Origin: a virus
Taxonomy: Duplodnaviria; Caudoviricetes
Reading direction: 5' to 3' (one strand)
Length of the DNA: 64,000 nt
Virus record (IMG/VR): IMGVR_UViG_3300032295_004079
Span: 48,984 to 112,983 of that record
Part shown: positions 36,643-54,890 of the stretch, piece after piece
Layout of the letters: each line of letters opens with the position of its first letter
How positions within the stretch are numbered: the first letter of the stretch is position 1
The notes under the pieces: generated by a model
Seen by the model: only the letters and a program-made list of their open reading frames with translations
The model's database searches: none
What the model was told of the DNA's origin: nothing
Made by a program: the position numbers and the translations under genes

Positions 36643-36757
36643 CTCGTTTGCACCCAAAAGAACAAAAGTTTCAAGACCTGGAGTGCATGCTAAAACTAAA
36701 AATTCTAGCACTAAGCACAACAAAAACTACGCTAAAGCTTATAGAGGACAAGGATAA
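36614..36757 (+). CDS. 47-aa highly basic protein ending KAYRGQG (absent from ORF track)
   Basis: Translated by hand; no Asp/Glu. Confidence 0.65.
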   Translation: MATKQKVSVSSFAPKRTKVSRPGVHAKTKNSSTKHNKNYAKAYRGQG

Positions 36758-36765
36758 ACATCTTT

Positions 36766-36861
36766 TTGTTTTCTTTACAATTTTTTAATAATCTTTTTGC
36801 AGAAAGCCTCTCGCGAAATGGTAGGCTTTCTGCTTTTTTGTTCGTAAATTTACACTGTTGA
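36766..36861 (+). repeat. Fixed-geometry cassette copy 1 (degenerate box A; terminator 36799-36840)
   Basis: TTGTT-N5-TACAA, GAAAGCC, CGTAAATTTACACTGTTGA at conserved offsets. Confidence 0.75.
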
Positions 36862-36883
36862 AAAATTAAGAAATATCAAAACT

Positions 36884-37165
36884 ATGAGAAATAAAAACCA
36901 ATCAATCTATAGAGCAATAGAAGAATTGCGTAAGATGAGTAATGCAGGATTAATAGACGGAGATGATTTCTTGCTTGTGTTCCTTAGACTAAAGAACCAA
37001 CTCCAACCAGAACAACCACTATCTTCTTCACTAACATTAGCAGATTTGGAATGCTACGATTTCCAATATTATGTAGGCCACATTGCTGATATGGATGGGG
37101 ATGGATGGGTTAATCAAGAAACAGCAGAATTAGTTTTGTTAGAATATAATGCAGGTGTAAGATGA
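36884..37165 (+). CDS. Hypothetical acidic protein
   Basis: First ORF after cassette 1. Confidence 0.6.
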   Translation: MRNKNQSIYRAIEELRKMSNAGLIDGDDFLLVFLRLKNQLQPEQPLSSSLTLADLECYDFQYYVGHIADMDGDGWVNQETAELVLLEYNAGVR

Positions 37166-37491
37166 TAAAATATAAACACACACATTCACATTTACCCCCA
37201 GTTCTATTTACTTCTATCTTTAATGGTAAAAAATATATTGTACCTGGATGGAAAGAAGTTCACCCTAATACTACACTAGAAAATATTGAATGGGTAAAAG
37301 AAAAAGTAGTAGTTAAAAAAACAGAAATTGAAACATTCGAGTTCCCATCCTCAAGTGGTAATGAAGTTTATATTGCTAAAAAATATACTAACCCCAATGG
37401 ATCTATTAAATTTAGCTGCAACTGCCCTGGTGTATGGCGCTCAGCTGATAGAAGATGTAAACATATAAAATCATTAGAAATAAATGGCTAG
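37162..37491 (+). CDS. SWIM zinc-finger protein
   Basis: SCNCP...RCKH. Confidence 0.75.
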   Translation: MIKYKHTHSHLPPVLFTSIFNGKKYIVPGWKEVHPNTTLENIEWVKEKVVVKKTEIETFEFPSSSGNEVYIAKKYTNPNGSIKFSCNCPGVWRSADRRCKHIKSLEING

Positions 37492-37717
37492 ATCAAGCGA
37501 AAGACTTAAAGCATCAGTTGGGGTAGTATTTACAACTTCTACTCAAGCAAACCCTAAATATAAAATTAAGGTATTCAAAAATAAAACAGTAGATGAGTTA
37601 CTGGATTGCAACTTTGAAACTCCTGGTATCCCTCTAAAAGCGGACATTAAAGAGATGGTAGTGGGAGATAATCTTATAAATATGTTAAAAACAAAGTATA
37701 AGATTAAAGCTGCTTAG
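37484..37717 (+). CDS. Hypothetical protein
   Basis: 77-aa ORF. Confidence 0.55.
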   Translation: MARSSERLKASVGVVFTTSTQANPKYKIKVFKNKTVDELLDCNFETPGIPLKADIKEMVVGDNLINMLKTKYKIKAA

Positions 37718-37824
37718 TATTTATTATAAAATGTTTGCTTCTACTCTCATCTCACTTTTATGTCTTATTGTGGTAATATCTATAATAAAAAAAAGACAAG
37801 AAAAACGAATTAATTGGTAATCCT

Positions 37825-38349
37825 ATGAGCAGCTATTCCACTTTATTAGTACCTATTTTAGAACAATTACTTGTAAAAGAAATTGGTGAGGCAAGTATTC
37901 CTCCTTTAAAATGGGAACAATTAACCCCCACTAGATTTAGATTTGAAATTTATATTGAAGATGAGTTTAATTATGTACAAGTAGAATTTGAAAGAGGGGG
38001 TGGTGCTGCAAAAGAATTTTTTCTTCCACCTGCTTATAGAAATATAAAATCTTTTTATAATGTAGGTTTTGATATTGATGGAACAGAGACCCAATATGCA
38101 AAAACTAAACTAAAAACTTTATTACAAATTATGTCTACAATGGTAGATATAGTGAAGTTTTTTATAAAAACCAGACAACCTGATGCCTTATCTTTTATGG
38201 CTACAGAAAAAAATAGGGATAGTAATAATATGCAAAAATCAAACTTATATCAGGCATTTATAAAAAAAGGAATAAGCTCTATACCAGGTTATACTAGTGA
38301 TACTTATAGAGATTCTTATCTTGTTGTAAAAAATTCAATATCCCGCTAA
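37825..38349 (+). CDS. Hypothetical protein; 3' end lies inside cassette 2
   Basis: 174-aa ORF. Confidence 0.65.
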   Translation: MSSYSTLLVPILEQLLVKEIGEASIPPLKWEQLTPTRFRFEIYIEDEFNYVQVEFERGGGAAKEFFLPPAYRNIKSFYNVGFDIDGTETQYAKTKLKTLLQIMSTMVDIVKFFIKTRQPDALSFMATEKNRDSNNMQKSNLYQAFIKKGISSIPGYTSDTYRDSYLVVKNSISR

Positions 38350-38419
38350 ACTTTTTGCAGAAAGCCTCTTGCTAAAAATTTGGCTACCCGAGAAACCGTT
38401 CGTAGATTTACATTGTTGA
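38324..38419 (+). repeat. Cassette copy 2
   Basis: TTGTA-N5-TTCAA, GAAAGCC, TTGG, CGTAGATTTACATTGTTGA. Confidence 0.85.
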
Positions 38420-38457
38420 TTTAAAACGGATACAAAAACAAAAAAAAAATAACGGTT

Positions 38458-39228
38458 ATGGAAAAGCAATTACTACACACCTGTCTTTACAAAGCAAAGC
38501 AGTCTTTCAAATTAGGAAACGAAGAATCAGCTCGTGATTTTTGCGACTTAGGAATCGCTTATATTGCTGATAAAAGATTAGACGGATATGGTCCTGAGGA
38601 TTTGATTGAAGGAATTAAAGTGGATTTGTGGTTGGAAAGATTTTGGATGTTTTTGGAAAATAAAAATTTGTTAATGTAATGGGAGAAAAGAGAGGTAATA
38701 CCGGAAAATTAGAAAACCCGTACAACGATAATGGTGTTCTAGAAGTATACCACGAAGAAATAGAACAGTGGATTAGAGTAACTTCTCGAGAATTTAGATC
38801 TTGGGGAGGAAAAAGAAGAATAACAGAGTACAGGTATCCCTATAGACAACCTACAGAGATAAGTATGTATGAATATACGGGTCCCGTATTTGAATATCTT
38901 ACAAATAAAATTATAAATAAACCAAGTAAAGGAGTAAACGGATCTCGTCCTAAATCTCAATCTACATACAGTGAAAGAATTTGATATTATGAAAGGTGAA
39001 ATTGAAGTAAGCAAAAGAAAAGCTGCATTTGCTGAACTAAAAGATTGGTGTATAATGTCTGTTACTTCTAAAGAAAAAAACAATACTGATTTTTTGGAGG
39101 TAACTGAATGGACAAATGGAGAAGGATATGATATTCACATCTCAGATAGTTCAGGAGAAAGAAAATTTGATTTAACCTGGGGTCAATTTAAAGCGCTTAA
39201 AGCATGTATAAAAAAAATAGATAAATAA
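38458..39228 (+). other. Three small hypothetical ORFs (38458-38679, 38679-38984, 38971-39228)
   Basis: Abutting ORFs downstream of cassette 2. Confidence 0.6.
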
Positions 39229-39350
39229 AATGGAAATCAGAACATTAGAATCAGACACACGAATGCGATTTTTCTTGGGGAATAATCCTCTGGGAGAAAT
39301 GGTAAAAATTGTATCAAAAGAGTGTAAAAGAATTGAAAAAAAGAAGGGTT

Positions 39351-40031
39351 ATGGAAAACAAATTCAAAACAAAGGATAATAGACCTTTGAGTCAAAAAGT
39401 AGGATATTTTTTAGAAGGACTACTATTTTGGAGAGGTAGACCTAAAGGAATGATTTATACTAGAGATATAGACTGGGATGATATTCGTGGAATATTTTTT
39501 CCAGATGGTTTTGAAGAAAAGTATGGCTACTTAGGATCTGTTCCTTATAATGAAGATAGTGAGGTATTTAAAGCTATGTATCCACTTATTTTGGCTATGG
39601 ATTATGAAGCTAGACCCAAATGGTGTCCAAGATGGTTTTTGAGATTTTTACATTTGTTTGGTAACGATAAATCAATTGTTAGAGTTAGAAACTTTACCTT
39701 ACATAATCTATTTAGAAAACTTACAAAAGGTATTATGATTTGGGATTACAAAACCAAATGGGAATGGTATGATTTGAGAATATCTATTTCTGCTCCTAAA
39801 CATTTACAGGATTTAGCAGATGCTATTGAAAAGGATTTCTATTCTAGAGGTAGACAAGAAGAAATAGTAGACCAAATCAAAAAACTAGATCCTAAAGCTA
39901 AGATTATGATGGGAAGTGTTGATTTGCTTGTTAAACAATATAATGAACTTGTAAGTAAGAAATCAGAGCAGAAAAAATCTCTCAAAAAAATAATGAAAGA
40001 AGATGAAGACCTGGGTCTATATGATAATTAA
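39351..40031 (+). CDS. Hypothetical protein
   Basis: GGTT-ATG start at 39351. Confidence 0.65.
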   Translation: MENKFKTKDNRPLSQKVGYFLEGLLFWRGRPKGMIYTRDIDWDDIRGIFFPDGFEEKYGYLGSVPYNEDSEVFKAMYPLILAMDYEARPKWCPRWFLRFLHLFGNDKSIVRVRNFTLHNLFRKLTKGIMIWDYKTKWEWYDLRISISAPKHLQDLADAIEKDFYSRGRQEEIVDQIKKLDPKAKIMMGSVDLLVKQYNELVSKKSEQKKSLKKIMKEDEDLGLYDN

Positions 40032-40140
40032 AGTTCTGGTATTACTATTAGTGTTGATCGCGTAATAATCTTATAATATGTGTTTAAATGGTTCAAATAA
40101 TTGCTTAGGTAGTTATAAGTGAACTAACTTAAACACATTT

Positions 40141-42615
40141 ATGAGATTATTTTTTTTATTTTTGTTATTCCCAATTTTAACATTTGGTCAAGTAACAATA
40201 AAAGGTAAAACTAAGTCAAAATCCGAAGACATCTATTTTGCCCACGTAACTTTCAAAGATATAAATGGTAATACATTTACTACTATATCAAACGAAAATG
40301 CAGATTACCAAATCCAACTCAAAGCAGGTACCTACCAAGTAAAAGCAACTTATATTGGTTACGGTGATTACGTAACAGATATAAATCTAACTTCAGATAC
40401 AACATTTGATGTAATATTTGAAGAAAGTAGTACTGAGTTATCAGAAGTTACTGTACAAGCAATAGCTCAAAAAACAACTGAAATTTTAGTTGTGAAAACA
40501 ATACGAGACAATAGTGTTGTATCAGACGGAATATCAACTGAATTTATTAAAAAAACACCTGATAGAAATGCAGGGGATGCTCTAAAAAGAGTAAGTGGCG
40601 TAACAATCCAAAACGATAAATTTGTTCTAGTAAGAGGATTAGCAGACCGCTACAATTCAGCTATACTTAATAAAACTTTATTACCATCAACCGAACCCGA
40701 CAGAAGAGCATTTTCATTTGATATAATTCCTACCTCACTAATAGATAACATTATAGTTTCTAAATCATCAGCAGCTAATTTACCAGGTGATTGGAGTGGG
40801 GGATTAGTTCAAATCACAACCAAAGAAGTATCAGACAATTTCTTTAATATATCTTTGGGGAGTGGATGGGGTTCAGTTTCAACTTTTAGAGATTTTAAGT
40901 TAGTTCAAGCTACTAAATTCCCATCCCTCTTCCCATCTACCTACAAATATAGAATTAGTGGAAATGGGGATAAAAGGGCGTATACAAAACTAATTGGTAA
41001 TCCAAAAGAAACAAATTTAAGTACGATACCTAATCTAAATGGGGGAATATCTTTCGGATATAATAAAAACAAATTTAGTGCTTTATACAGCTCCACAACT
41101 CGGAATACATATATCCTAAACTACATTGACCGAAAAGATTACCAATCATCAACCGAATTAGCTTATGATTATAAAGATGTTTTGTATGCACAACGCTTTT
41201 CTACAAATAATTTATTTAACTTAACTTATTTAGGTCAAAACAAATATAGTTGGAAAACATTAGTAAATTATCAAGCAGAAAACACTTATTTAACAAGAGA
41301 GGGAGACAATTTTGATAACGTACAAAACGTTTTAAGTACTGCCTCAAACCACATTAACAATGTTGTAGTTAATTCTCAATTAGATGGAAAGATTAGAACG
41401 TGGGATTTTAATTTAGGCTACAATTTTATATTCAGAGAACAACCAGATTATAGAATAAATCCAATTACTAAATCCCTGGGTGTAAATGAGCCTTATCAAA
41501 CGGCTTGGAGAGATACGTATCGGTTTTGGAGCGCAATGGAGGAAAATAGTCTTAGTGGCAATGTAAATAAAGAGTTGGGTAAGATAAAAGTAGGGGGTGG
41601 TTATTTGAAAAAGATTAGAGGGTTTAATGCAAGAGTATTTCGTTATCAGTCTGTAGACATTATGGATGAAATAACAAATAATACCGATAGATACACTGCG
41701 GATTTTGATTTGGCTAACTTGTACACCATGTATGAGAATGATTGGGGGAAATGGAAAATTAACACGGGTCTACGTGGAGAATACAATTTATTTAATGTAG
41801 CAACAGCAGATTTTAGTGGTTCTAAAGTAAATGTAAATAGAGAGTATTTAGATGTGCTTCCTTCACTTAACTTGTCGTATAATGAGGAGAAAACAAAATA
41901 TAGATTTTCTTTGAGTAAAACTTTGGCAAGACCTGAATTTAGAGAAGTAGCTAATTTTGCTTATTATGATTTTGTAAGAAATGCTCAAATATTGGGAAAT
42001 TCTAATTTAGAAAAATCAGATGTGTACAATTTGGATTTAAAATATGAATTTTATCCAACAATTGGAGAAAATATTTCATTTTCGGTATTTGGTAAGAATT
42101 TTATTAGACCAATAGAGCAAGTTGTAGCAGATGGTTCAGTTCCTTCGAATTTGTTGTTAACTTATACAAACCCTGAATCAGCTGTTTTGTATGGTACAGA
42201 ATTGGAAATTAGAAAGAAAATAGTGGAATGGATTGATGTTTACAGTAACATTTCAGTAATGAATTCTGAAGTTAATGTGAATGGGGAAAAGAGACAATTG
42301 CAAGGACAATCTAATTATGTAGTAAATACTGGAATAAACATAAATAAAAAGAATGAAACGCTTAATATAACTTACAATAGAGTAGGAGATAGAATATCGG
42401 CTGTTGGATTTCAAGGTTATCCTGATATTTTTGAAAATAGCAGAGATGTATTGGATATTACATTCTTACATAAGTTAAAGAATGGAGAAGTAAAATTAGC
42501 AATAGGAGATATATTTGCTCAACCATCAGTTTATTACCAAAAAGCACAAAATAGAAATTTAATTAGAACAAATAACGAACAAACTATTTCATTAACCTTA
42601 AACTTAAACTTATGA
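40141..42615 (+). CDS. TonB-dependent outer-membrane receptor with carboxypeptidase-regulatory-like N-domain
   Basis: Signal peptide, ATYIGY, L.EV.V, plug DALKRVSGV..VRGL.DRY, RPEFRE, GNSNL, alternating beta-strand C-terminus. Confidence 0.92.
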   Translation: MRLFFLFLLFPILTFGQVTIKGKTKSKSEDIYFAHVTFKDINGNTFTTISNENADYQIQLKAGTYQVKATYIGYGDYVTDINLTSDTTFDVIFEESSTELSEVTVQAIAQKTTEILVVKTIRDNSVVSDGISTEFIKKTPDRNAGDALKRVSGVTIQNDKFVLVRGLADRYNSAILNKTLLPSTEPDRRAFSFDIIPTSLIDNIIVSKSSAANLPGDWSGGLVQITTKEVSDNFFNISLGSGWGSVSTFRDFKLVQATKFPSLFPSTYKYRISGNGDKRAYTKLIGNPKETNLSTIPNLNGGISFGYNKNKFSALYSSTTRNTYILNYIDRKDYQSSTELAYDYKDVLYAQRFSTNNLFNLTYLGQNKYSWKTLVNYQAENTYLTREGDNFDNVQNVLSTASNHINNVVVNSQLDGKIRTWDFNLGYNFIFREQPDYRINPITKSLGVNEPYQTAWRDTYRFWSAMEENSLSGNVNKELGKIKVGGGYLKKIRGFNARVFRYQSVDIMDEITNNTDRYTADFDLANLYTMYENDWGKWKINTGLRGEYNLFNVATADFSGSKVNVNREYLDVLPSLNLSYNEEKTKYRFSLSKTLARPEFREVANFAYYDFVRNAQILGNSNLEKSDVYNLDLKYEFYPTIGENISFSVFGKNFIRPIEQVVADGSVPSNLLLTYTNPESAVLYGTELEIRKKIVEWIDVYSNISVMNSEVNVNGEKRQLQGQSNYVVNTGININKKNETLNITYNRVGDRISAVGFQGYPDIFENSRDVLDITFLHKLKNGEVKLAIGDIFAQPSVYYQKAQNRNLIRTNNEQTISLTLNLNL

Positions 42616-43808
42616 AAAAACTATTATTAATTATCTTAGCATTTGGAGTATTCAGCTGTGAAACTGAATTAGGGGGAGAAGATGGTGTTATTGGGGTTCC
42701 AACTACAACAACACTTTCGGGTAATATCAACACAACTACAACTTTAACTTCTGATAAAGTTTGGACACTAAAAGGATATGTTTACGTAACAGATGGAGCA
42801 AAGTTAATTATTCAACCTGGAACTGTAATAGTTTCTGATATAGCTGAAAAAGGAGCATTGTGTATTGAAAGAGGAGCACAAATCATAGCAGAGGGAACAG
42901 CTACTAAACCAATTGTGTTTACTTCAGGTAAGCCTGCTGGAGAGCGAGCACCTGGTGATTGGGGAGGTATTATTATATTAGGAAGAGCAAAGACTAATCG
43001 TTCTTCTGAACCTACTATTGAAGGTGGAATAGGTAGAGCTTTTGGTGGAACAAATGATGCTGATAATAGTGGTGTATTAAAGTATGTACGAATTGAATAT
43101 GCTGGAATTGCTGCTATGCCAAACTCTGAAATTAATGCCTTAACATTAGGAGGTGTTGGAAATGGAACAGTAATTGAAAATGTTCAAACTGTATATGCTA
43201 ATGACGATGCGTTTGAATTTTTTGGCGGAACAGTAAATGCTAAAAATTTATATGCTTATGCTACAGCAGATGATGATTTTGATTTTGATTTTGGCTATAC
43301 AGGAACTATTACTAATGGGGTAGCTAAAAGAGACCCTCAATTTGTAGATAGTGGAGATGCAGGCAATGGAGTTGAATGTGATAATGATGGAACAGGTTCT
43401 TCTGCTCAACCAACAACTCATCCTAAGTTGCTTAATATGATTTTAGTTGGTCCTAACGTATCTTCTGCTTTAGCTAACCACAATTTAGGATTAAGATTTA
43501 GAAGAGCAACTCAATTTACAATGAAAAATAGTGTTGTATGGGGTTGGATGAAAGGTGGATTAAGTTTAGAAAGTAATGAAACAGCTCAATTTGTAAAAGA
43601 TGGAGTTTCAGTATTTGAAAACAATTCAGTAGGAACATTTAATCCATCTCTAAATTTTATCAGCAGAGCAACTACAATTTTAACAAATGATCAGCTTAAA
43701 ACACTAGCTTTAAGCAAAAACAACAAAGAAGTAAATGTAGTAATACCTGAATTGGATAAACCAATTTGGATAAATGGGTGGACGAGATTTCCATCAAAAG
43801 GAAATTAA
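42612..43808 (+). CDS. Beta-helix-like lipoprotein partner of the TonB receptor
   Basis: FSC lipobox; PGDWGG, DNSGVLKYVRIEYAG, DDAFEFFGG, DDDFDFD. Confidence 0.8.
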   Translation: MKKLLLIILAFGVFSCETELGGEDGVIGVPTTTTLSGNINTTTTLTSDKVWTLKGYVYVTDGAKLIIQPGTVIVSDIAEKGALCIERGAQIIAEGTATKPIVFTSGKPAGERAPGDWGGIIILGRAKTNRSSEPTIEGGIGRAFGGTNDADNSGVLKYVRIEYAGIAAMPNSEINALTLGGVGNGTVIENVQTVYANDDAFEFFGGTVNAKNLYAYATADDDFDFDFGYTGTITNGVAKRDPQFVDSGDAGNGVECDNDGTGSSAQPTTHPKLLNMILVGPNVSSALANHNLGLRFRRATQFTMKNSVVWGWMKGGLSLESNETAQFVKDGVSVFENNSVGTFNPSLNFISRATTILTNDQLKTLALSKNNKEVNVVIPELDKPIWINGWTRFPSKGN

Positions 43809-43810
43809 AT

Positions 43811-43838
43811 AAAGAGGAGCTATTTAGCTCCTTTTTTA
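43811..43838 (+). terminator. Intrinsic terminator
   Basis: AGGAGCTA-TT-TAGCTCCT + T tract. Confidence 0.8.
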
Positions 43839-43889
43839 TTTGGAAAACTGGAGAAGGGATCGTATATTTACAACTGTAAATAAAATTAT

Positions 43890-44861
43890 ATGCACAATAT
43901 AGACGAAGAATACAGACAACTCCTAATGGATATTCTAATTAATGGAGTTAAAAAAGAAGACAGAACCGGAACCGGTACACAATCAGTATTTGGTAGACAG
44001 ATTCGTCATTCAATGAGTGAAGGATTTCCTTTACTTACAACCAAGAAAATGGCTTGGAAATCTATAGTAACAGAATTGCTTTGGTTTCTTAGAGGTGATT
44101 CTGATATTAGATTTCTGTGGGAAAGCAACTGTACAATTTGGGACGGTGATTGGTATAAGCGGTATAAAACTACTTGTTCTGAACCATACACATTAGAAGA
44201 GGTTAAACAGAAAGTAAAAGAAGGTGGCCATTATTTCCACGATTCAATGTTTGATATGGGACCAATCTACGGTAAGCAATGGAGACAGTGGAATTACCAA
44301 AGTAAGAAGAACCATTATGTTATGGCAGGTCAACCTACTCATTATAGTATTAATATTGACCAAATTATAAATCTAATCTCTGAACTTAAATCAAATCCTG
44401 ATAGTAGAAGATTAATGGTATCAGCTTGGAATGTAGGTGAACTAGATAAAATGGTTCTTCCTCCTTGCCATTATGGATTCCAAGTTTATACACAAGAAAG
44501 AGAAGGTAAACGATATATTTCTTTAATGTGGAATCAACGTTCAGTAGATACATTCTTGGGATTACCGTTTAATATTGCTTCCTATGCTTTGCTATTAGAG
44601 ATTATAGCTAAAGAAGTAAATATGATACCTGATGAAATAATTGGGAATTTAGGAGATGTTCACTTATATTTAGATCATATTGAACAAGCAAAAGAACAAA
44701 TTAGTAGAAAACCATTTGAATTACCTAAATTAAAAATGAATCCTATATTCTTAGCTAATTTGGAACATAAATCATTTGATGAAGCTATTAATGGAGTAGT
44801 TAGTTTTGAATTAGAAAATTATCAATCACACCCTGCTATTAAAGCACCTTTATCTAACTAA
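43890..44861 (+). CDS. thyA: Thymidylate synthase
   Basis: DRTGTGT, ELLWFL.G, GPIYGKQWR, LPPCH, QRSVD.FLG.PFN. Confidence 0.97.
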   Translation: MHNIDEEYRQLLMDILINGVKKEDRTGTGTQSVFGRQIRHSMSEGFPLLTTKKMAWKSIVTELLWFLRGDSDIRFLWESNCTIWDGDWYKRYKTTCSEPYTLEEVKQKVKEGGHYFHDSMFDMGPIYGKQWRQWNYQSKKNHYVMAGQPTHYSINIDQIINLISELKSNPDSRRLMVSAWNVGELDKMVLPPCHYGFQVYTQEREGKRYISLMWNQRSVDTFLGLPFNIASYALLLEIIAKEVNMIPDEIIGNLGDVHLYLDHIEQAKEQISRKPFELPKLKMNPIFLANLEHKSFDEAINGVVSFELENYQSHPAIKAPLSN

Positions 44862-44864
44862 GTT

Positions 44865-45161
44865 ATGACATACGAAAATTTTGCAAGTATAGTAGAAACA
44901 TTACAAAAACAAAGTGATTTAGTAAATGATTTATACTCTAAGAAGGTAGACTTAATTGATTTTGCAGATCCTTATGACGGTATCATTCGTATTTTACTAA
45001 CAGAAGTTTATACTGCAGAAGGTTACGATTGGTTTTCTTGGTTCTGTTATGAAAATGATTTTGGAACAGGAAGATTGGATGCTAATGATGAAAATGGACC
45101 TATCTGCTATGATGTAAAATCTCTTTGGGAGTTTTTGGAAACTAATTACAATAAATCATGA
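44865..45161 (+). CDS. Hypothetical protein
   Basis: DWFSWFCYENDFG motif. Confidence 0.6.
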   Translation: MTYENFASIVETLQKQSDLVNDLYSKKVDLIDFADPYDGIIRILLTEVYTAEGYDWFSWFCYENDFGTGRLDANDENGPICYDVKSLWEFLETNYNKS

Positions 45162-45697
45162 GAAAATTCTTAATTTTACTAACCCTACTTACTTTTATTA
45201 CAGGTACTATAGGTGTCTCTAAATCTGCAGAAGATAATCTTAGACTTCTAATAGAAGAATATGAGGGCATAAAGTTAAAGGCTTATAGATGTCCTAAAGG
45301 AGTACCTACTATAGGAATTGGATCTACAAGATATGAGGATGGTAGTAAGGTTAAATTGGGGGATGAAATATCTCTTGAATATGCTGAAGTGTTATATGAA
45401 AGAGAAGTAGATAAGGTAAGAAAGGAAGTTGATCAGTTAGTTATCCCTAATCTAAATAAGAACCAAGAAGATGCTTTAGTTAGTTTTGCTTACAATGTAG
45501 GTATTAATGCTTTTAAATCTTCAACTTTATTAGAAAAAGTAAATAAAGATCCAAGAAGCAATTCTATAAAAAGAGAATTTATGAAATGGACAACTTCAGG
45601 AGGTAGAAGACTTAAAGGACTTGTTAAAAGAAGAAAAGCAGAAGTTGATTTATATTTCTTAAAAACACCAAACTATGCAAATAGTTCTAACTCTTAA
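45158..45697 (+). CDS. GH24 lysozyme with N-terminal signal/SAR segment
   Basis: EG..LKAYRCP.GVPTIG.G, ALVSFAYNVG, GLVKRR.AE. Confidence 0.9.
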   Translation: MRKFLILLTLLTFITGTIGVSKSAEDNLRLLIEEYEGIKLKAYRCPKGVPTIGIGSTRYEDGSKVKLGDEISLEYAEVLYEREVDKVRKEVDQLVIPNLNKNQEDALVSFAYNVGINAFKSSTLLEKVNKDPRSNSIKREFMKWTTSGGRRLKGLVKRRKAEVDLYFLKTPNYANSSNS

Positions 45698-46151
45698 TAA
45701 AGATATTGCTCCACATATAGCAGATTTGATACTTGATGGAAAACTTGAGGGAGGTTATTCAATCGACTACGCTTTAAATGCACTTGTATCATTTCTAAAT
45801 GGAAGAGAAATTATTATTTACAATTTCACAAAATATTTTTGGTTGGACAATAGATGGAGTGGATATAAGATTGATAATTATGGAACAAAAATAGTAATAA
45901 ATTTTATTTAATAAATGCTACACTTAGAAGAAAAAGTAAAAGATCAAATTTACAATATAATTTTAAAATCAAACGGTATTATAGTAGGTGAATTTGTTAA
46001 AGTAGATGGGTTCTATTATTTCGCTGAAAATGATAGTAGAACTTGGGGATTATGGTCACAGGAGTTTTTAAAGAGTTTGGTATCTGAATTAGAATTACTA
46101 AACAAAGAAGTAAATGATGCCATAAAAGCAGATTACATAAATTTTCAATAA
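45675..46151 (+). other. Two small hypothetical ORFs (45675-45911, 45915-46151)
   Basis: ORF track. Confidence 0.55.
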
Positions 46152-46155
46152 ATAA

Positions 46156-46251
46156 TTGCAAGATTTTCAATAAGCACGCGAACTGCTTAGCGAAAGTTCC
46201 TCGCCGAAAGCTTGGCTTTCGGCTTTTTTGTTCGTAGATTTACATTGTTGA
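46156..46251 (+). repeat. Cassette copy 3 (terminator hairpin 46203-46230)
   Basis: TTGCA-AGATT-TTCAA, CGCGAACTGCTTAGCGAAAG, TTGG, CGTAGATTTACATTGTTGA. Confidence 0.92.
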
Positions 46252-46271
46252 TTTAAACAAAAATAATGGTT

Positions 46272-47267
46272 ATGAAAAAATTAGATGAATTAGTAGCAGA
46301 TAAGAATTATATACATGTTAGTTACTATGGTAACATTAGAACTACATTTAGATATATAGGTAAAACAGATTCAAAAAGACACGCCATCGTTATATTAGAT
46401 GGTAAAGAAGAAGGAGTTAAATCATTCCTTATTCCAACAGATCAAATTATTGAATATTAATATAAAAAAATAAAGGTTATGAACAAAACTGAAATTAAAA
46501 GACAAATCAATTATCGATTCTATCAGTACGTAAATAATAATTTCCCGGAATATGAAATTGATGGTGGAGAAGGAAATGGAAGAATATATTTGGTACCAAA
46601 AGAAGGTGATAGTAGAAATGATAATTCAATTGAATATCACCAATCCAGACATGATTTAGTTTGCCTTAATTATGCGTCTAAAAAAACACATGAAGACGTA
46701 GCTAAAATGCAATCTTATGTCTCAAATAATATTATTCCATTCATAAACTTATGTCTCAAATAATATTATGACACCTAAAGAAAAAGCAGAAGAGTTGGTA
46801 CATAAGTTTAAAAAGTATTCTTATTATCCAAAAACAAATAATGATATGTTATTTGTAAATGAACTTAATAATAATGCCAAACAATGTGCATTGATAGCAG
46901 CAGATGAAATATTAAGTGATTATAAAAATTATTTGTTGCATGAAAATACAGAATATAAGGGTTTAATGTATTGGAAACAAGTTAAACAAGAAATCGAAAA
47001 ACTATGACACAACAAACTGCAGAAAATAACTTACACGAATGGTTTTGGTTATTTAAACACAAATTAGTAGATGAATTCCCTGAATACCAACCAACATTTG
47101 ATTATATAGTAGAGAGTGCAGATGGGGATGGGGTATTGTATGAAGTAATGGAATTTGCTTATAGATACTTGCAAGTAGAAGCAGCATTGAGAGGTGGAGA
47201 AGATAATCTAACCATCACTAACTATTTGAAGGCTTTAGATTACGGGTATGACGAATGGAAAAAATAA
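46272..47267 (+). other. Four small hypothetical ORFs (46272-46460, 46479-46763, 46768-47007, 47004-47267)
   Basis: GGTT-ATG starts; 46768 carries MTPKEKA...AKQCALIA pattern. Confidence 0.6.
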
Positions 47268-47275
47268 AATTCTGT

Positions 47276-47407
47276 TTGAAAGACCTGCAAAGAGCGCGCG
47301 AACTGTTTCGCGAATGCTCCTTGCGTCTTGCTTGGCTTCCTGAGGAATTCAGCGTAAATTTACAGTGTTGAGCGTTTAGGCTCAATTGATATAACACGGT
47401 GTTATAT
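47276..47407 (+). repeat. Cassette copy 4 with two leader hairpins
   Basis: TTGAA-AGACC-TGCAA ... CGTAAATTTACAGTGTTGA; ATATAACAC-G-GTGTTATAT. Confidence 0.92.
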
Positions 47408-47436
47408 TATATAATAAAAAATAAATAATAATGGTT

Positions 47437-48204
47437 ATGAAAAGTGTAATTGAAAATCAAATCCAAGAAGTAAAACAGAAAATATCATTTCTAGATCAGA
47501 AAGTAGAAATTATTAATAAAACTTATCAAGATTTAGAATCTGCATTTATTACTCCATTTTTGGAACAATATAATATCGTATCTGAAGAGTGTTTTTTGAG
47601 ATATGCATATGATACATTTACAATTTGTGCTCTAAAAGATGGTATCTATAGAGAAGAATTGGTTAGTTTTAGAATTCATATGCCATCCTATTCTTTTGGA
47701 GAAGAAAGAGAGAGAGTTATTTCAACTTCTTTCTATTCTACAAATACAAGTGGTGAATTTGAATTGAATAGAATGGTTATTATTGGTAGAGTAGGTCAAA
47801 TGTTACTTGATAATAAAAGTGATATTCTTTCAGGTTGGGATATTCTAATGAAAAATCGTAGTAATGAAACCGAAGAGGTTTATCGTGAAATTGGTATTCT
47901 AGAAAAAGAATTACGTGAACTAAAATTATCTCTAAGAGAAATTGAAAAAGAAGAAATGTATAATATCCTTAGTGAAGGAGTACATTTCAAAATGGATGAT
48001 CTTGTAACATTAGATATCAATAATAAAGAATCTAGATATCTCTCTTATATTAAATTGTTATCTACTAAAAACAAATCAGTAGTTGTAAAATATATTGGTC
48101 ATAGAGATGAAGATTTTACTACAGCAACTGTTAGATTAATGCATTTAGAAAGATTTATTATCAGATATTCTAATCTACTAGCTCCAAAAGAAGTATTAGC
48201 TTAA
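47437..48204 (+). CDS. Hypothetical coiled-coil protein
   Basis: GGTT-ATG start. Confidence 0.65.
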   Translation: MKSVIENQIQEVKQKISFLDQKVEIINKTYQDLESAFITPFLEQYNIVSEECFLRYAYDTFTICALKDGIYREELVSFRIHMPSYSFGEERERVISTSFYSTNTSGEFELNRMVIIGRVGQMLLDNKSDILSGWDILMKNRSNETEEVYREIGILEKELRELKLSLREIEKEEMYNILSEGVHFKMDDLVTLDINNKESRYLSYIKLLSTKNKSVVVKYIGHRDEDFTTATVRLMHLERFIIRYSNLLAPKEVLA

Positions 48205-48867
48205 TATATTGTAAAACTTAAATATAAAAAACTATGGTTATCAACATTATTCAGAAAGTATTAGGTAAATCAAAAGGTATTTCTAGGGAAGGTGATCTAA
48301 AACCTAAAGGTGTAAAATATACTATTAGGGGGGATTATGGTTTTAATGAAACGTTTGAACATATTTTTAGAGAACGACTAAAGAGCTAAATATGAGAACT
48401 GAAAGAGATATTATGTTATTAATTGTTGAATTGGAGAATTGGATTTCACAAATTAAGAGAGAAAATCCTAATGATGGAGATATTGCTATATTGATAGCGA
48501 ATGAAAAAATTAATGTACTAAAATGGGTGTTAGATGATATTTAAAGAATATGATCAGGCAGTTATATACGCTGCTCTAAATGATATAAAAGGTTATCATG
48601 TAGCAGGGAATAAAAAAGGTGGATGGTTAATATTAAAAGGAAATAAAGTAGTAAAAATAAAAAATGTCTAAACTAAAAAAGGGAGATACAGTACGATTCC
48701 CATTTGCTGGGACTATTCATATAGGTACATTTGAAGGTATTACAGAGGTAGAATATGGTTCAGTAAAAAGAACTTACTATAAATGCAAAACAGCAGAAGG
48801 TACTGTGTATCCTGTTGACAAGTCTTTAGTAAGTAAAATTTAAACTAACAATTTTTTTACATTTTTT

Positions 48868-48963
48868 TTGAAGCAATTTCAAGGAACACGCAAACTGTTT
48901 CGTGAAAGTTCCATGCAAAATTTTTGGAAAACCGAAGTTTTCAGCGTAGATTTACATTGTTGA
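48868..48963 (+). repeat. Cassette copy 5
   Basis: TTGAA-GCAAT-TTCAA ... CGTAGATTTACATTGTTGA. Confidence 0.92.
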
Positions 48964-49016
48964 GTTACAGGTTAACGAAACGTAAATAAATATATAAAAT
49001 ATAAATAATAAAGGTT

Positions 49017-49436
49017 ATGAGAGGAATACAATTATTTCAGATTAGAAAATCCAATAATAAGTTTGATCCTAAGTATTTAATGAATGATAACGACGAGTTA
49101 TTTGTTGTAGAATATAATGGTTATCATATTACTATAATTAGACATAAGTTTTGGGATAATACATACCAATCAAATTTAAGAATAATTAAAGATGGAAGTC
49201 AATTGGTGGATGGAGAACCTAACGAATATGGAGTAAGTTGTGCTCTATGGATCCAACAAATATCTTCCAAAAATCCAGGAAAAACTGAAGAAAAACTGAT
49301 ATTAAAAGCTAAAGCTATTATTGATAGGTTAGATGAAAATGGAAGAGGGAATTTATGTCTATGTAATAGAGGTAATATAATTGAAGATCCTAATATAATT
49401 GCAGAATTTGCAAAGTACGCGCAAACTGTTTCGTAA
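49017..49436 (+). CDS. Hypothetical protein; stop codon lies inside cassette 6
   Basis: ORF track. Confidence 0.6.
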   Translation: MRGIQLFQIRKSNNKFDPKYLMNDNDELFVVEYNGYHITIIRHKFWDNTYQSNLRIIKDGSQLVDGEPNEYGVSCALWIQQISSKNPGKTEEKLILKAKAIIDRLDENGRGNLCLCNRGNIIEDPNIIAEFAKYAQTVS

Positions 49437-49533
49437 AAATTCCACGTAATTTTGTTGGAGAACTGAGGGAACGTTCGTAGATTTACATTGTTGTACGTTT
49501 AAAGCGTACGCATGGTATAACACGGTGTTATAC
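49399..49533 (+). repeat. Cassette copy 6 with leader hairpins
   Basis: TTGCA-GAATT-TGCAA ... GTATAACAC-G-GTGTTATAC. Confidence 0.92.
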
Positions 49534-49562
49534 GATAGAATAAAAATTAAATAATAAAGGTT

Positions 49563-50073
49563 ATGTTAAATAAAGAAACATTAAACACATTAGAAAAAAC
49601 ATTTGGTCCATTCCTTATAGATAAAGTTTGGGGTGGCAGTAATACACCATTTCTTAGATTTGGTTATTGGAGACGAGTAGATGTAAATCAACTCCAATCT
49701 ATTATTGGTAATGAGATTATCATCAAAGAAGATAATTTAGATGATGATGATTGTGGTACATTATTTTCTTACAAAATGTTTGAACGATATAAAGGATAAT
49801 AATATGAAAACATTTAAAGATTTAGTATTCAAACCACACCCATTAGGTAGTGGAATACAAGCTGTTATGCATTTTGAAAAGGGATACGGTGTAAGTGTAG
49901 TACAAACTCCTTATTCATATGGTGGTAAAATGGGATTATATGAAATCGCTGTTATAGACAGTGAAGGAGAAGTAGTATATGATACTCCAGTAGCTGATGG
50001 TGTAATTGGCTATCTCAGAGAAGAAGATGTTACTGAAGGAATGAGGAGAATTCAATTGTTGGAAATATCATAA
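49563..50073 (+). other. Two hypothetical ORFs (49563-49799, 49804-50073)
   Basis: Second has F..GYGVSVV...SYGG..GLYEIAV pattern. Confidence 0.6.
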
Positions 50074-50081
50074 TATTATTT

Positions 50082-50177
50082 TTGCAAGATTTTCAATAAA
50101 CGCGCAAACTGTTTCGCGAAAGTTCCACGTGCAAAATTTGGAGAAGCGAGAAATCGTTCGTAGATTTACATTGTTGA
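50082..50177 (+). repeat. Cassette copy 7
   Basis: TTGCA-AGATT-TTCAA, CGCAAACTGTTTCGCGAAAG. Confidence 0.92.
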
Positions 50178-50239
50178 TTTGAGTTATGAAGTATTAAATC
50201 AATAGTATTATATCATTTAACATATATAAAATAAAGGTT

Positions 50240-51132
50240 ATGAAAGCAGATATCAGAATTACAGCGCAGTATTATGAAAATTATGGTGATACTAATACTC
50301 CGTATTGGAAACCAAAAGGTGGTACCGAGTTTATTATCAAGGGAGTAGATCCCGATCCTGTTATGTTTGCTGCTCCTGGTGAGGCTGATAAGGCTATTGA
50401 AAACCTATTATATGAGTATTCTAATAGCCATGCTAAATATACTCTGATTGATTGGGAATTCATATTTAGTGAACCTATTGAATTGGATAAGGATAATTTC
50501 CTATGGGAAATGGGGATTGATGAGAATCCAGGTCCAGGTATGTTCATAAATGAAGATGATGAGGAGTGGAAAAAATAATTGATATATAATTAAATAAAAA
50601 AATAAAGGTTATGTTAGAAAAACTAAAAAACACACTTTCAGAACAAGTTATTGATATCTTTACTTTTAGGGCTGAAGATCTTTACGATATGTCAGAGGAA
50701 TTTTATCAAGATCATTATAGTAATATGGGATCGGTATTATATAATGTTCAAAAACACCAAACTCTCAAATCACTAATTGAAGCTCTATATGACTATGAGT
50801 TTGATTATATTGGAATTGATAGTGATGAGATGGTAGATGAGTTATTAGAATCAGTATTTGAATTAAGTAAATAATAAAATATAAAGGTTATGTTAAAGCA
50901 AAATAAAAGAGAACCGTTACTAAAGAACTATCGAGGACAATACCGATACCTCTTCAACTGGAAGAGTGGAGGGTTCAATGATATATGGGCTGAGAATTTA
51001 GTAGAGTTCAAGAAGAAACTAAAGAGAGAGTATCCGGGATCAGAGTCACAAGTAGATTATAGTACACTACACAAAGCTACTCTTACACGAAGTAGGGAGT
51101 GGGATAGAATTGGTAATATGTGGTGGGACTAA
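50240..51132 (+). other. Three hypothetical ORFs (50240-50578, 50611-50874, 50890-51132)
   Basis: Each starts ATAAAGGTTATG. Confidence 0.65.
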
Positions 51133-51150
51133 CAAAGTACTTAAGTTAAA

Positions 51151-51282
51151 TTGTTGTATTTGCAAGGAGCGCGCGAACTGTTTCGCGAATGCTCCTTGTT
51201 ACTTGCTTGGAGAAGCAAAAAATCGTTCGTAAATTTATATTGTTGAGCGTTTAAGCTTCAATTAGTATAACATGGTGTTATA
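51151..51282 (+). repeat. Cassette copy 8 with leader hairpins
   Basis: TTGTT-GTATT-TGCAA ... TATAACA-TGG-TGTTATA. Confidence 0.9.
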
Positions 51283-51611
51283 TTATAATATAATAAGGTA
51301 AATAATAATGGTTATGGAAGATATGATAACAGTACAAATCCTGAAAAATGGTCAACCACTTAAAGAGTTTAAGTGTGAAGAGAAGAAGTTACATATAACA
51401 TTTGCTACAGCTCATTCTATAGCAGGTGGATTATGGAATGGTGTGGATGCATTTAGTGTAAAAATAAATAAATAAGATTATGACACACAGCGATATTTTA
51501 GATTTAATCGATACATTAATCCAATATAAATCTGGTAATGTAACAAATAAGGGATTAGAAGAGGCATTAGAAGAAGCATTAAATAAATTAAAAAAATAAA
51601 TAATAAAGGTT

Positions 51612-51851
51612 ATGATAACATTTGATGAATTAAAAAACGTATTACTACAGGGAGAGATTGAAGTTGAATCCGATAATCCACTATTTGTAGGAGAAGAATA
51701 TGCCGAATTAATAACCGGATTGCATGTTGAATTTAATGATGCAAAGACATTATTAGATCTAATTCGTATCTATGAAGATAGAGGTTTTGATACATACGAA
51801 GCAAATGAGATTATAATTAATACACTATTGCAATTAGCAACACTTAAATAA
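51612..51851 (+). CDS. Small acidic protein, paralog of 52352-52594
   Basis: MITFDELK...RGFDTYEA..II. Confidence 0.7.
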   Translation: MITFDELKNVLLQGEIEVESDNPLFVGEEYAELITGLHVEFNDAKTLLDLIRIYEDRGFDTYEANEIIINTLLQLATLK

Positions 51852-51863
51852 ATAATAAAAGTT

Positions 51864-52193
51864 ATGTCTACAAGATCTAAAATTGGTATCGAAAATAATA
51901 ATGGAACAGTTAGTGCAATATACTGTCACTGGGATGGTTATCCAGATAATAATGGTAAAATACTAAAAGAATATTATAGTGATAGAGATAAGCTACAACA
52001 GTTACTTGAATTGGGAGATATTAGTGTATTAAAAGAGGATTTAGGTAAAGTGGAAGCATATCATAGAGATTTGTGTAAGACATATTATCCACCTATAGAA
52101 TATAGAAATATAGATTCGTTTAGTAAACAATTTGGATTTGAATATGGATATGTGTTTACTAAAAATGGTGAATGGTTAACATTTGAAGGTTAA
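51864..52193 (+). CDS. Hypothetical phage protein
   Basis: MSTRS.IG...IYCHWDGYP motif. Confidence 0.7.
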   Translation: MSTRSKIGIENNNGTVSAIYCHWDGYPDNNGKILKEYYSDRDKLQQLLELGDISVLKEDLGKVEAYHRDLCKTYYPPIEYRNIDSFSKQFGFEYGYVFTKNGEWLTFEG

Positions 52194-52194
52194 A

Positions 52195-52326
52195 TTGCAA
52201 GATTTTCAAAGATTGCGCAAACTGTTTAGCGAATGCCTCATGCGCAAAATTTGGTTTACTGAAGAATTGTTCGTAGATTTACACTGTTGAGCGTTTAAGC
52301 TTCAATTGGTATGGCATGGTGTTATA
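52195..52326 (+). repeat. Cassette copy 9 with leader hairpins
   Basis: TTGCA-AGATT-TTCAA ... TATGGCA-TGG-TGTTATA. Confidence 0.92.
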
Positions 52327-52351
52327 TCATATAGAATATAAAATAAAGGTT

Positions 52352-52594
52352 ATGGTAACATTTGATGAATTAAAAGCATTAATTATTAAAAGCGAAACCT
52401 CATTATCTATTTGGGGGGATGTATTACAAGAAGAGGAATTTGAATTGTATGTTAAGGGTGTAGAAAATGAAGTTTACAAGTGTAATAGTATAGGAGCTAT
52501 TATTTCATTTTATGACAGACAAGGATATGATACAGTAGATGCATATAATATCATTTTAGATACAGTAATGAATAATTCAACCTTAAATAAATAA
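52352..52594 (+). CDS. Small acidic protein, paralog of 51612-51851
   Basis: MVTFDELK...QGYDTVDA..II. Confidence 0.7.
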   Translation: MVTFDELKALIIKSETSLSIWGDVLQEEEFELYVKGVENEVYKCNSIGAIISFYDRQGYDTVDAYNIILDTVMNNSTLNK

Positions 52595-52602
52595 TAAAAG
52601 TT

Positions 52603-53649
52603 ATGGCATTACCATTTAATTTAACATCCGTTCTATCCGCTAGACAAATAGAAGGATATGATATTATTGAAAAAGCATTCCCAGTTATCAGTAAGTGGAG
52701 TGGTAGAGAAGTTACAATAACAGATGCTATATATGTGGCACTAAGTGATGTTATGTCAGATTTTGAAGATTGGCCTGAAGATCAGGGGTTTGGTAGTTCA
52801 GATATGACGTTTGCTAAAAAATCGTTTATTGATACTATGATTAATATGGCTAATCTAAGTAATGAATATAAAACAGATTTTAAACCATTTCTTAAAGTAG
52901 TTCAAAAATAATAAATAATAAAGGTTATGGCTCATACAACATTGAATCTAGAGCAATTTACAGAATTGATAAAAGATGTTAAATTCACTCCCGCTCAAAA
53001 TAAAATAGTAAATCGTCTTATCAAGGGAGATCAATTATGGTTATTAAATTCTCATAGAATGAGTGGTGGTGAGTATATGTGGAGAACTAAATATTCATCT
53101 AATCCTGAACATGCAGGCCATGTATACAAGGCATTTTGGAATATCCAATATGTAATTAGAAAACAAAAAGGTATTGAAGTAGATTTTTCAATATTCTTCT
53201 ATAGAGATTAAATTTAAATAAATAAAGATATGAACAAACAACAATACAGTACAATCATTCTAAATACACTCCCTATTCTACTGTGTGTGGGAGTAATAAT
53301 TGCATTTAGTTCCCCGGGACGTGATATAACAATGTGGGATATAATGGTAGGGATAGTCGTGGGTTACTATTCAGGAATAATCGTGTATAAAAATAAAAAT
53401 AAATAAATCCAGCATATGAATAATACTACTAACACAACAACGTATAACGGATGGAGCAATTGGGACACGTGGAATACCTACAATTGGATAACGGATGATG
53501 AGCTAATGTATCGTCGAGCTGCTCGCTCAACAGATGCTAATCACCTATATGAAACAATGGTAAATTATATTACACGAGTGAATGATGGAATTGATATTGA
53601 TAATGTTAATTGGGTGGAGCTATATGATGCGTTTAATGAGGGTGTGTAA
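52603..53649 (+). other. Hypothetical ORFs (52603-52911, 52927-53211, 53416-53649)
   Basis: Last has YNGWSNWDTW...VNW.E pattern. Confidence 0.6.
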
Positions 53650-54141
53650 TAAAGCAACACACATGTTGTTTCGATGCATCGAAACTTTCATTTAGATATA
53701 ACGGAACTATAATTTAGGCCCAACATAACTAATGTTTAGGTGTATGGTAACACAAGTGTGGACAACGGAATATAAGTGGGGGTATGAGTGGTAGAAGTTT
53801 CGAGTAATCTAAAAGTAATGGTATAGTATGTGGAACGGGATAGGTATGGTGTTGGGGATAGGGAGAGATAAGTATTAACCTACTCACATCGCTAGCAAAC
53901 CTATTCTAAACCTCTTCTAAAGTATATACACGAATTGCACTATTTGCAAAAAACACATATAAAAATTGCAAATAAGAAGAAAGCTCACCTATACCAATTG
54001 CACTATTTGCAAAGTTTAATTTAATTTATATGTAAAAAAATGGAAAACCAAACAAAAAGACAAAAACAAATTGAATTTTCTGAAAAAGTTGCTTTAATAA
54101 GTGGCGTTCTTTTTATTTTAACTGTAATTTTTTTAATTTTT

Positions 54142-54271
54142 TTGTAAAATTTTCAAAAAACATATTAACCATTTGTTGAAAGCCTCATGTGAAACGCTTG
54201 GAGACCTGAGGATCTATTCGTAAATTTACGGTGTTGATTTAGGTTAACGATTATATAACATGGTGTTATAT
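54142..54271 (+). repeat. Cassette copy 10 with leader hairpins
   Basis: TTGTA-AAATT-TTCAA ... CGTAAATTTACGGTGTTGA; ATATAACA-TGG-TGTTATAT. Confidence 0.88.
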
Positions 54272-54293
54272 GATAATATAAATAATAATGGTT

Positions 54294-54890
54294 ATGAATA
54301 ATAAGAAAATTGAAGGTTTTGGTGTAATGGCAGTTGAATTTAACTTGGTTAAGAAGTTGAATAATGGTGGTTTGGGTAAGGAAACACGTTTTGTATATAA
54401 TGGTACTGAATATATTCTAAGTAAACATACCTATGGTGATGGTGATGTATTATATTCCATCCATAATAAAATGTCAAGTATGAATATAGATAAAGTTACT
54501 TCCCGTTATATTAGCTTATACAGTTATGATATGATGAGTCAAAGAACCAGCTTTAAACTACCTGTGGATAGTCTGATGGTGTTGATTGATGATGAGAAGG
54601 AATATAATGAAAAATACCCCCAGTACCTAACACCTAATCACCCAAGCATGGTTAAATAATATAAATAATAAGTTATGAATCGTTATATGAAATTTAAAAT
54701 TGAAAGAGAAACTAGGTGGGATGCTAGTAAAATGGATAGCGTAACCAAGTATTTTATTTGGGCGGGTAGCCAATGTCTAGCCTTAGTTAATACTGAAGCT
54801 GAAGCTATAGTAATGTATGATAAAATTAAGTCCAACTATATTAAAGGTGAGACTGTAGTGATACTAGAAGAGGATATTGAGATAAAATAA
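54294..54890 (+). other. Two hypothetical ORFs (54294-54659, 54675-54890)
   Basis: GGTT/AGTT-ATG starts. Confidence 0.6.

Follow-up and report, generated by a model that had tools for sequence, protein, structure and literature searches.

Ten copies of a rigidly phased, promoter-like cassette among the small variable genes of an uncultured freshwater phage

The DNA considered here is a 64,000-nucleotide (nt) window, positions 48,984 to 112,983 of IMG/VR virus record IMGVR_UViG_3300032295_004079, and the element of interest is a cassette of about 95 bp that recurs ten times within it. The source is an uncultured freshwater phage represented by a linear contig of 112,983 bp that is approximately 69% complete, so further copies of the cassette are possible. 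The record encodes a tail sheath, a DnaB-like helicase, ribonucleotide reductase, DNA polymerase, GroEL and QueE, and nearly all of its genes lie on the + strand. The ten cassettes all fall within 36.7-54.3 kb of the window. An earlier note on this DNA had placed ten same-strand copies here, and its starts are correct: 100 nt printed from each start fall in one register. Counted in columns from the first base of each copy, the register has a TTG-N9-CAA dyad (box A) at 0, GAAWG at +36, TTGG at +56 and CGTARATTTAYNNTGTTG at +77, exactly as had been claimed. Box B (CGCRAACTGTTTMGCGAA), a second palindrome said to be present in most copies, is clear in copies 3-9 and degenerate in copies 1, 2 and 10. 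The copies are given below in window coordinates, together with the transcription start site (TSS) predicted at column 91 and the first open reading frame (ORF) downstream where these bear on the text; −33 and −7 denote the promoter elements discussed thereafter.

36766..36861 (+): cassette copy 1; box A degenerate; −33 element TAGG in place of TTGG; terminator-like hairpin with a T-run in columns 33-75; predicted TSS 36857; first ORF 36884
38324..38419 (+): cassette copy 2; upstream ORF 37825-38349 terminates within it, at column 25; predicted TSS 38415; first ORF 38458
46156..46251 (+): cassette copy 3; intrinsic-terminator-like hairpin 46203-46223 with a T-run, between −33 and −7; predicted TSS 46247
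47276..47371 (+): cassette copy 4; perfect box B palindrome; predicted TSS 47367; two hairpins in the leader
48868..48963 (+): cassette copy 5; relatives L047 and L095 carry its left half joined to the right half of copy 6
49399..49494 (+): cassette copy 6; AAAAA at +36 in place of GAAWG; upstream ORF 49017-49436 terminates within it, at column 37; predicted TSS 49490
50082..50177 (+): cassette copy 7; highest matrix score, 135.7 bits; predicted TSS 50173
51151..51246 (+): cassette copy 8; joined to a copy-5-type leader in relative L047
52195..52290 (+): cassette copy 9; predicted TSS 52286; likely true start codon of its first gene 52352
54142..54237 (+): cassette copy 10; box B degenerate; predicted TSS 54233; hairpin in the leader; first ORF 54288

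A 100-column position weight matrix built from these copies, the genome-wide scan that the earlier note had proposed, gives precisely ten matches (88-136 bits) in the whole record on both strands, and no other site there exceeds 10 bits. The +77 motif has ten exact matches in the record and two more at up to two mismatches, the chance expectation at that tolerance being 0.32. A near-identity search of the cassette region against GenBank phages returned no match, and the literature on Flavobacterium phages, searched for repeated promoters, yielded no relevant report. All ten cassettes stand directly upstream of + strand ORFs, from which they are separated by leaders of 19-73 nt. The cassettes do bound small sets of genes, as had been noted, but the upper limit of the reported 1-4 genes fails: units hold 1 to 5 ORFs, and the unit between copies 2 and 3 holds about 13.

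The right half of the cassette reads as a Bacteroidota sigma-A promoter, in line with the earlier suggestion. In the TSS map of Flavobacterium psychrophilum, the sigma-A −7 box TAnnTTTG occupies −12 to −5 (PMC9723704). When this geometry is applied to TA(R)ATTTA at columns 79-86, +1 falls at column 91, the G of TGTTG, and the conserved TTG of columns 56-58 consequently falls at −35 to −33 with a spacer of 20 nt. The TTG lies at this position, 20 nt upstream of the −7 box, in nine of the ten copies, TAnATTTA is present at −12 to −5 in all ten, and each predicted promoter points toward the downstream ORFs. Seven of the eight consensus positions of the −7 box are matched, while the final G is replaced by A in every copy. 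Additionally, a leader hairpin in 7/10 copies starts at the predicted +1 G; its 5ʹ arm is an invariant GTTGA, and its 3ʹ arm varies with the type of leader.

Four further predicted promoters in the genome have the core TTGG-N17-yGTAyATTTA without boxes A and B. Because they share the core, the boxes mark a subclass of the promoters of this phage.

43839..43872 (+): box-less promoter before thyA, core TTTGG-N17-CGTATATTTAC
Window 6357-6390: box-less promoter after queE
Window 56872-56911: box-less promoter before the DUF932 gene at 56947
Genome position 45865, before the window: box-less promoter

A third promoter-like class, nATATTTATAA, lies 20-45 nt ahead of many structural and other genes, and it lacks the −33 TTGG where this was checked, in the tail-sheath promoter.

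Window 1372-1388, 18233, 34292, 56470, 60837 and 63932: examples of nATATTTATAA
Upstream of the window, ahead of the tail sheath gene: a further example

The phage also carries a candidate sigma gene, ORF 60121-60822 (+), whose 233-aa product has a weak Pfam Sigma70_r2 match and, in an alignment of 24 sequences, a region 2 motif of the type FDPxxGxKAYSYFGTIVKRWLI. The N-terminal domain of its AlphaFold model has a predicted local distance difference test (pLDDT) score of 70-86, and the top Foldseek matches are nearly all sigma factors, although with E values of just 0.2-4. The protein is extremely conserved (>7,900 homologues, of which the 120 best matches are 75-95% identical). Judged by these model-based and alignment matches, it is probably a sigma-70-family factor.

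Such a protein raises the alternative that the cassettes are read by a polymerase carrying the phage sigma-like factor and not host sigma-A, which would make them middle or late promoters. This would suit the sequence TAnATTTA(C/T), which replaces TAnnTTTG in every promoter of the phage, as well as the presence of a probable sigma-70-family gene. However, the −33 TTG, the 20-nt spacer and the −7 geometry all fit the host-type consensus, and the sigma assignment itself is weak at the Foldseek E values given above. Furthermore, the nATATTTATAA class, which precedes structural genes and may be a late class read by the phage protein, is the better candidate for its target. Recognition of the cassettes by the phage factor therefore appears unlikely, and a host sigma-A-type promoter remains the preferred reading of the right half.

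What distinguishes the cassettes from the box-less promoters is their upstream half. Across columns 0-54, the ten window copies have a mean identity of only 62%, and 15 columns are nevertheless invariant, compared with 2.6 expected if mismatches were spread evenly; none of 5000 shuffles reached 15. The conserved positions comprise the box A dyad (T0 T1 G2, T10, C12 A13 A14), A25 A26 C27 T28 and T31 T32, followed by G36 A37 A38, G40, C44 and G47. In its full form, box B is the palindrome CGCGAA-CTGT-TTCGCG, and it runs into GAAnG-N3-C-N2-G. With +1 at column 91 as predicted, box A is centered near −84 and box B near −62.5, and the 21.5 bp between the two centers equal two helical turns. Among 185,579 species-representative genomes of bacteria and archaea, the combination of boxes A and B matched 61 times, singly and scattered; none of these hits is a cassette, and the number is consistent with chance.

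Box A sequences also occur apart from a promoter, at 53935-54013 in a 490-bp non-coding island (window 53650-54140) upstream of copy 10.

53935 and 53998: stand-alone perfect box A dyads TTGCACTATTTGCAA, 63 bp apart, without an attached promoter
53967: TTGCAA half-site between the two stand-alone dyads

The island comes after a terminator-like palindrome at 53668-53685, and a G-rich tract precedes the box A dyads. A 35-aa membrane-like ORF within it (54040-54147) is missing from three relatives. At the other end of the region, 345 bp upstream of copy 1, the box-A-like dyad TTGTAAGATTTTCAAG lies at window 36421 (−) inside ORF 36304-36642, where it scores 21 bits with about 0.1 genome hits expected by chance.

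An alternative reading places the action of the boxes on RNA. Read-through from the upstream operon transcribes the boxes, so they might form a terminator, an attenuator, a processing site or a 3ʹ-end stabilizer, as does the stem-loop of the promoter-early stem-loop (PeSL) cassettes of T4-type phages. Terminator-like hairpins with T-runs do occur in copies 1 and 3, and box B of copies 4 and 8 folds into a hairpin of −19 to −22 kcal/mol, without a T-run. Yet the hairpins of copies 1 and 3 are the only ones of their kind and span columns 33-75, outside boxes A and B, and most copies have no T-run. Moreover, RNAalifold found no pairs and no consensus fold in either 44 or 99 copies, and a search of the cassettes against Rfam found no family. 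Palindrome cells are paired in 80.7% of cases against 78.3% in shuffles, which indicates little covariation, and more than half of the copies do not pair at the central position of box B. An RNA-level role thus seems very unlikely. Because structural covariation is missing and conservation is specific to position, the boxes are better understood as motifs read on duplex DNA.

The spacing of these motifs is preserved far beyond the window. The +77 motif retrieved nine related IMG/VR contigs with several cassettes each, and copies were collected from public viral and metagenome contigs (designated here by L numbers), which derive mostly from freshwater-lake samples. The cassette had been described as indel-free, and a MAFFT alignment of 99 copies has no gap in columns 1-90. 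Gapped patterns in which the distances separating box A, box B, −33 and −7 could vary by ±6 or ±3 bp found true copies of one total length only in three scans of the collection; two 56-nt matches to these patterns were unrelated sequence and were discarded. The unit of boxes A and B lies at offset 0 in 92 of 93 distinct copies. The remaining copy, L015:4292 (also in L018), has lost 11 nt (columns 45-55), and its intact module of columns 0-44 consequently sits at +11, exactly one helical turn nearer the promoter. This shift is the sole exception to the fixed position of the unit. In two relatives, one nucleotide is deleted between the −7 box and TGTTG.

Pairwise comparisons with relatives give the same picture. 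The net change in cassette length is 0 in 29/31 comparisons, and in the other two, BLAST gaps occur at the left edge of the cassette only and both copies are in register in an ungapped alignment. The adjacent leaders, by comparison, have 8.9 gap openings per kb. Eight apparent BLAST gaps within cassettes proved to be compensating pairs or edge artifacts that leave the length unchanged.

More distant phages were reached with the DUF932 protein (56947-57750) as a marker, at 57-61% identity. In this sister lineage, the promoters share the core (TTTGG-N17-yGTAyATTyA) and the start-codon context, but boxes A and B are absent. In their place, contigs L262-L276 and L315 carry the perfect 19-bp palindrome ATTTAGAATnATTCTAAAT three to four times per 10-20 kb, always 10 or 20 nt upstream of the −33 element. 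Relative to the predicted TSS, its center lies at −65.5 in 17 distinct copies and at −55.5 in four, and at no other position; this window contains no ATTTAGAATnATTCTAAAT dyad beyond chance. A lineage-specific operator that is locked to one helix face and placed on a shared core is what a co-evolving pair of regulator and operator predicts, and neither a generic polymerase contact nor homogenization of repeats predicts it. As far as sequence can tell, operators that are lineage-specific and locked in helical phase look like the design of the whole clade. The earlier proposal that the rigidly phased upstream sites serve as protein-binding DNA has gained support: conservation is position-specific, covariation is missing, the displaced module has moved by one turn, and the sister dyad takes two positions, all of which are consistent with a bound protein.

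A simpler reading makes each cassette a plain analogue of PeSL: a strong constitutive early promoter that is a substrate for recombination as well, with the upstream conservation reflecting not a dedicated regulator but either contacts of RNA polymerase (like those of an UP element with the alpha C-terminal domain) or gene conversion among copies. In its favor, PeSLs of T4-type phages likewise conserve about 100 bp that include the upstream region (PMC2839356), chimeric copies of the present cassette show that the repeats recombine, and Pfam, PHROGs and helix-turn-helix searches did not find a regulator gene. The upstream motifs, however, are dyads that contain G+C and not A/T tracts, and gene conversion would give uniform rather than position-specific conservation. 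The same core also serves four promoters without boxes, and a shared polymerase contact does not predict that the sister lineage would place a different dyad on this core at two positions 10 bp apart. We consider this simpler account improbable, if slightly less so than recognition by the phage sigma-like factor, and favor a promoter joined to an operator array.

The cassettes are nonetheless sites of exchange. When gene order was compared across relatives, it proved to be rearranged and not conserved. Comparison with the nine relatives shows 46-55 kb to be a mosaic. Four relatives extend across 55.2-62.3 kb, and there they are collinear with it at 83-90% identity. A crossover in columns 25-49 joins the left half of copy 5 to the right half of copy 6 in L047, L095 and several lake contigs, and these chimeras lack the 139-aa ORF that lies between the two copies. 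L047 additionally joins copy 8 to a copy-5-type leader through a crossover in columns 77-95, L095:8036 switches partner around columns 60-77, and further crossovers are located at the leader or ATG. L162 (metagenome contig Ga0164292_10184444) has two copy-3-type cassettes 641 bp apart that flank an inserted lysozyme-like segment, which duplicates part of the lysozyme gene region (window 45232-45656) at 78% identity; this layout is expected after single-crossover integration of a cassette-bearing unit. Chimeric cassettes and reordered genes of this kind bear out the analogy with PeSL that the earlier note had drawn.

Cassettes share this role with a shorter repeat located at start codons, for which 15 of the 19 genome sites of AAWRGTTATG lie within 36000-55400.

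46260..54296 (+): short start-codon repeats AAWRGTTATG (AATAAWGGTTATG), the commonest synteny breakpoints

Start-codon repeats of genes that lack a cassette make up 11% of the sequence and account for 57 of 130 ends of synteny blocks. A further 34 ends fall in the 9% taken up by cassettes and leaders, and 14 in the 70% that lies inside genes. Some block ends at gene boundaries may represent divergence past recognition and not exchange; the changes in order are real. The claim that the cassette organizes the variable region is overstated, since breakpoints are commoner at AATAAWGGTTATG. Some presence-absence differences concern a single ORF bounded exactly by two start-codon repeats, for example 46768-47007 or 51612-51851. 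In relative L105, position 40059 is joined to 43878, and a TonB-dependent-receptor-like outer-membrane protein (Plug and beta-barrel domains) and the 398-aa ORF that follows it, which together occupy window 40141-43808 (+), are missing.

The earlier note had also offered an integron-like recombination site that builds interchangeable cassettes of 1-4 genes. In such a system, a recombinase would cut at a fixed point in the cassette to capture or excise units. Small sets of genes do lie between repeats, and the difference between some relatives is exactly one such unit. Nevertheless, the scattered crossover columns and the excess of breakpoints at start-codon repeats outside the cassettes do not fit a single cutting point, and varied crossover columns indicate homologous rather than site-specific exchange. 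The record, at 69% completeness, has no match to the tyrosine recombinase family PF00589, and serine recombinase PF00239 yields just a 12-bit fragment with a stop codon. No conserved attC-like fold was found, and each unit has its own promoter. This proposal does not survive the comparison and is the least probable of those considered, whereas the chimeras fit ordinary homologous recombination between promoter cassettes.

Several genes surround the variable region. It is flanked by an HNH endonuclease-like ORF at 35542-36147 (+) and a T5orf172 (GIY-YIG-type) ORF at 57787-58269 (+). At the end of the cassette region, a 90-nt tRNA-like gene (window 54899-54988, +) is called tRNA-Tyr with anticodon GTA by ARAGORN and scores 44 bits against the Rfam tRNA model, which covers 54899-54987; a bidirectional terminator (55380-55398) comes after it. 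A thioredoxin gene (55895-56197, −) is part of a small minus-strand block just after the variable region.

Taken together, these observations suggest that the phage is a lytic myovirus with a Bacteroidota (Flavobacterium-type) host and that each copy gives it a complete module for starting transcription. Columns 56-95 would constitute a host sigma-A-type promoter from which transcription probably begins at the G of TGTTG, and columns 0-47 would form a DNA-level operator array, made up of box A, box B and the GAAnG motif, that shares one helical register with the promoter. Most likely, a sequence-specific factor binds this DNA from one face and co-regulates the ten ORFan operons as a single temporal class. 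The factor is probably encoded by the phage, because the sister lineage uses a different dyad. An activator-dependent promoter, one of the possibilities raised in the earlier note, is plausible from the arrangement of sites, and activation is favored by only a narrow preference over repression or shut-off. The approximately 100-160 bp common to all copies would also make the cassettes substrates for ordinary homologous recombination, and cassettes and short start-codon repeats together would allow small genes to be inserted, deleted and reordered between related phages. We infer promoter activity, the start site, factor binding and the sign of regulation from the sequence, and judge this model of a promoter-operator cassette that doubles as a PeSL-like recombination substrate to be likely as a whole.

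Several points weigh against it. The promoter activity, start site and temporal class proposed here are predictions. The −7 box ends in A where the consensus has G in every promoter of the phage, and a probable sigma-like protein is encoded, which together make recognition of the cassettes by host sigma-A uncertain. All copies come from one closely related group of phages, so that the register may partly reflect shared descent, and the variant with the 11-bp shift is a single sequence from two samples. Start-codon repeats, as counted above, outnumber cassettes and leaders as breakpoints. Moreover, no regulator gene has come to light: a Pfam search of twenty ORFs of the cassette region gave one sub-threshold match only, searches of 39 ORFs (Pfam) and 10 ORFs (PHROGs) in and around the region found no DNA-binding family, and neither did models of HTH_3, HTH_17 and sigma regions 2 and 4 when run over the whole record, approximately 69% complete, where those for HTH_3, HTH_17 and sigma region 4 had no match at all.

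The significance of the cassettes lies in their regularity. A 45-bp upstream array held in one exact register across about 100 natural copies is unusual, and the one-turn variant and the sister palindrome at two positions amount to a natural 'spacing mutagenesis' series. This regularity points to regulator-dependent transcription in phages of Bacteroidota, for which we know of no characterized transcription regulator or operator. Boxes A and B and the ATTTAGAATnATTCTAAAT dyad are defined DNA baits with which regulators may be found. The arrangement further suggests that a newly acquired gene could inherit correct timing by recombining behind a cassette. It is possible, though we put it forward only tentatively, that the clade runs a dedicated transcription class in which lineage-specific phage regulators, bound to phase-locked dyads at −84 and −62.5 here and at −65.5 or −55.5 in the sister lineage, switch host-type promoters on or off. 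If true, this would be a system resembling MotA or class I CRP regulation that is undescribed for any phage of Bacteroidota, and its operators would double as portable homology that lets new ORFan genes plug into the regulon.

The closest known counterparts are the PeSL cassettes of the T4-type phage pairs RB49/phi1, T4/PST and KVP40/nt-1 (Arbiol et al. 2010, PMC2839356; Comeau et al. 2014, PMC4122927). In both cases, about 100 bp of conserved intergenic sequence around a host-type promoter is repeated before ORFans in a hyperplastic region, and close relatives gain, lose or replace genes at the repeats and leave chimeric repeats behind. A hairpin sometimes lies between the −35 and −10 equivalents of PeSLs, as it does in copies 1 and 3. 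The present cassettes differ in that the promoter is of the Bacteroidota −33/−7 kind, a terminator-like stem-loop occurs in just 2/10 copies, and the upstream part consists of two G+C-containing dyads in rigid register instead of an A/T-rich tract. They also share the shuffling role with short start-codon repeats. Integron attC sites resemble the cassettes insofar as repeats separate small gene units, but here neither an integrase nor an attC fold was found, crossovers occur at more than one point, and every unit starts with a promoter of its own.

At class I activator-dependent promoters of E. coli, CRP-type sites are centered near −61.5, −72.5 and −82.5. The cassettes likewise have dyad sites upstream of the −35 equivalent at positions one helical turn apart, namely, with reference to the predicted TSS, −62.5 for box B, −84 (or −73 in the shifted variant) for box A, and −65.5 or −55.5 for the sister dyad. 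The sigma-A and promoter geometry of the host phylum are different, however, and the activator here is putative, repression being possible as well. In the phi29 p4/p6 nucleoprotein switch and T4 MotA/AsiA, a phage factor acts on phased promoter sites to impose a common temporal program. By analogy, the cassettes combine phased sites at a set of promoters with a proposed phage-encoded factor, although they have no sequence or protein homology with either system; furthermore, the MotA box replaces the −35 element, whereas the present cassettes retain a −33 element and have their sites further upstream. The shuffling of small early genes by repeated promoter cassettes is already known from T4-type coliphages; the novelty here is an operator array held in rigid helical phase, with a lineage-specific counterpart in the sister phages.

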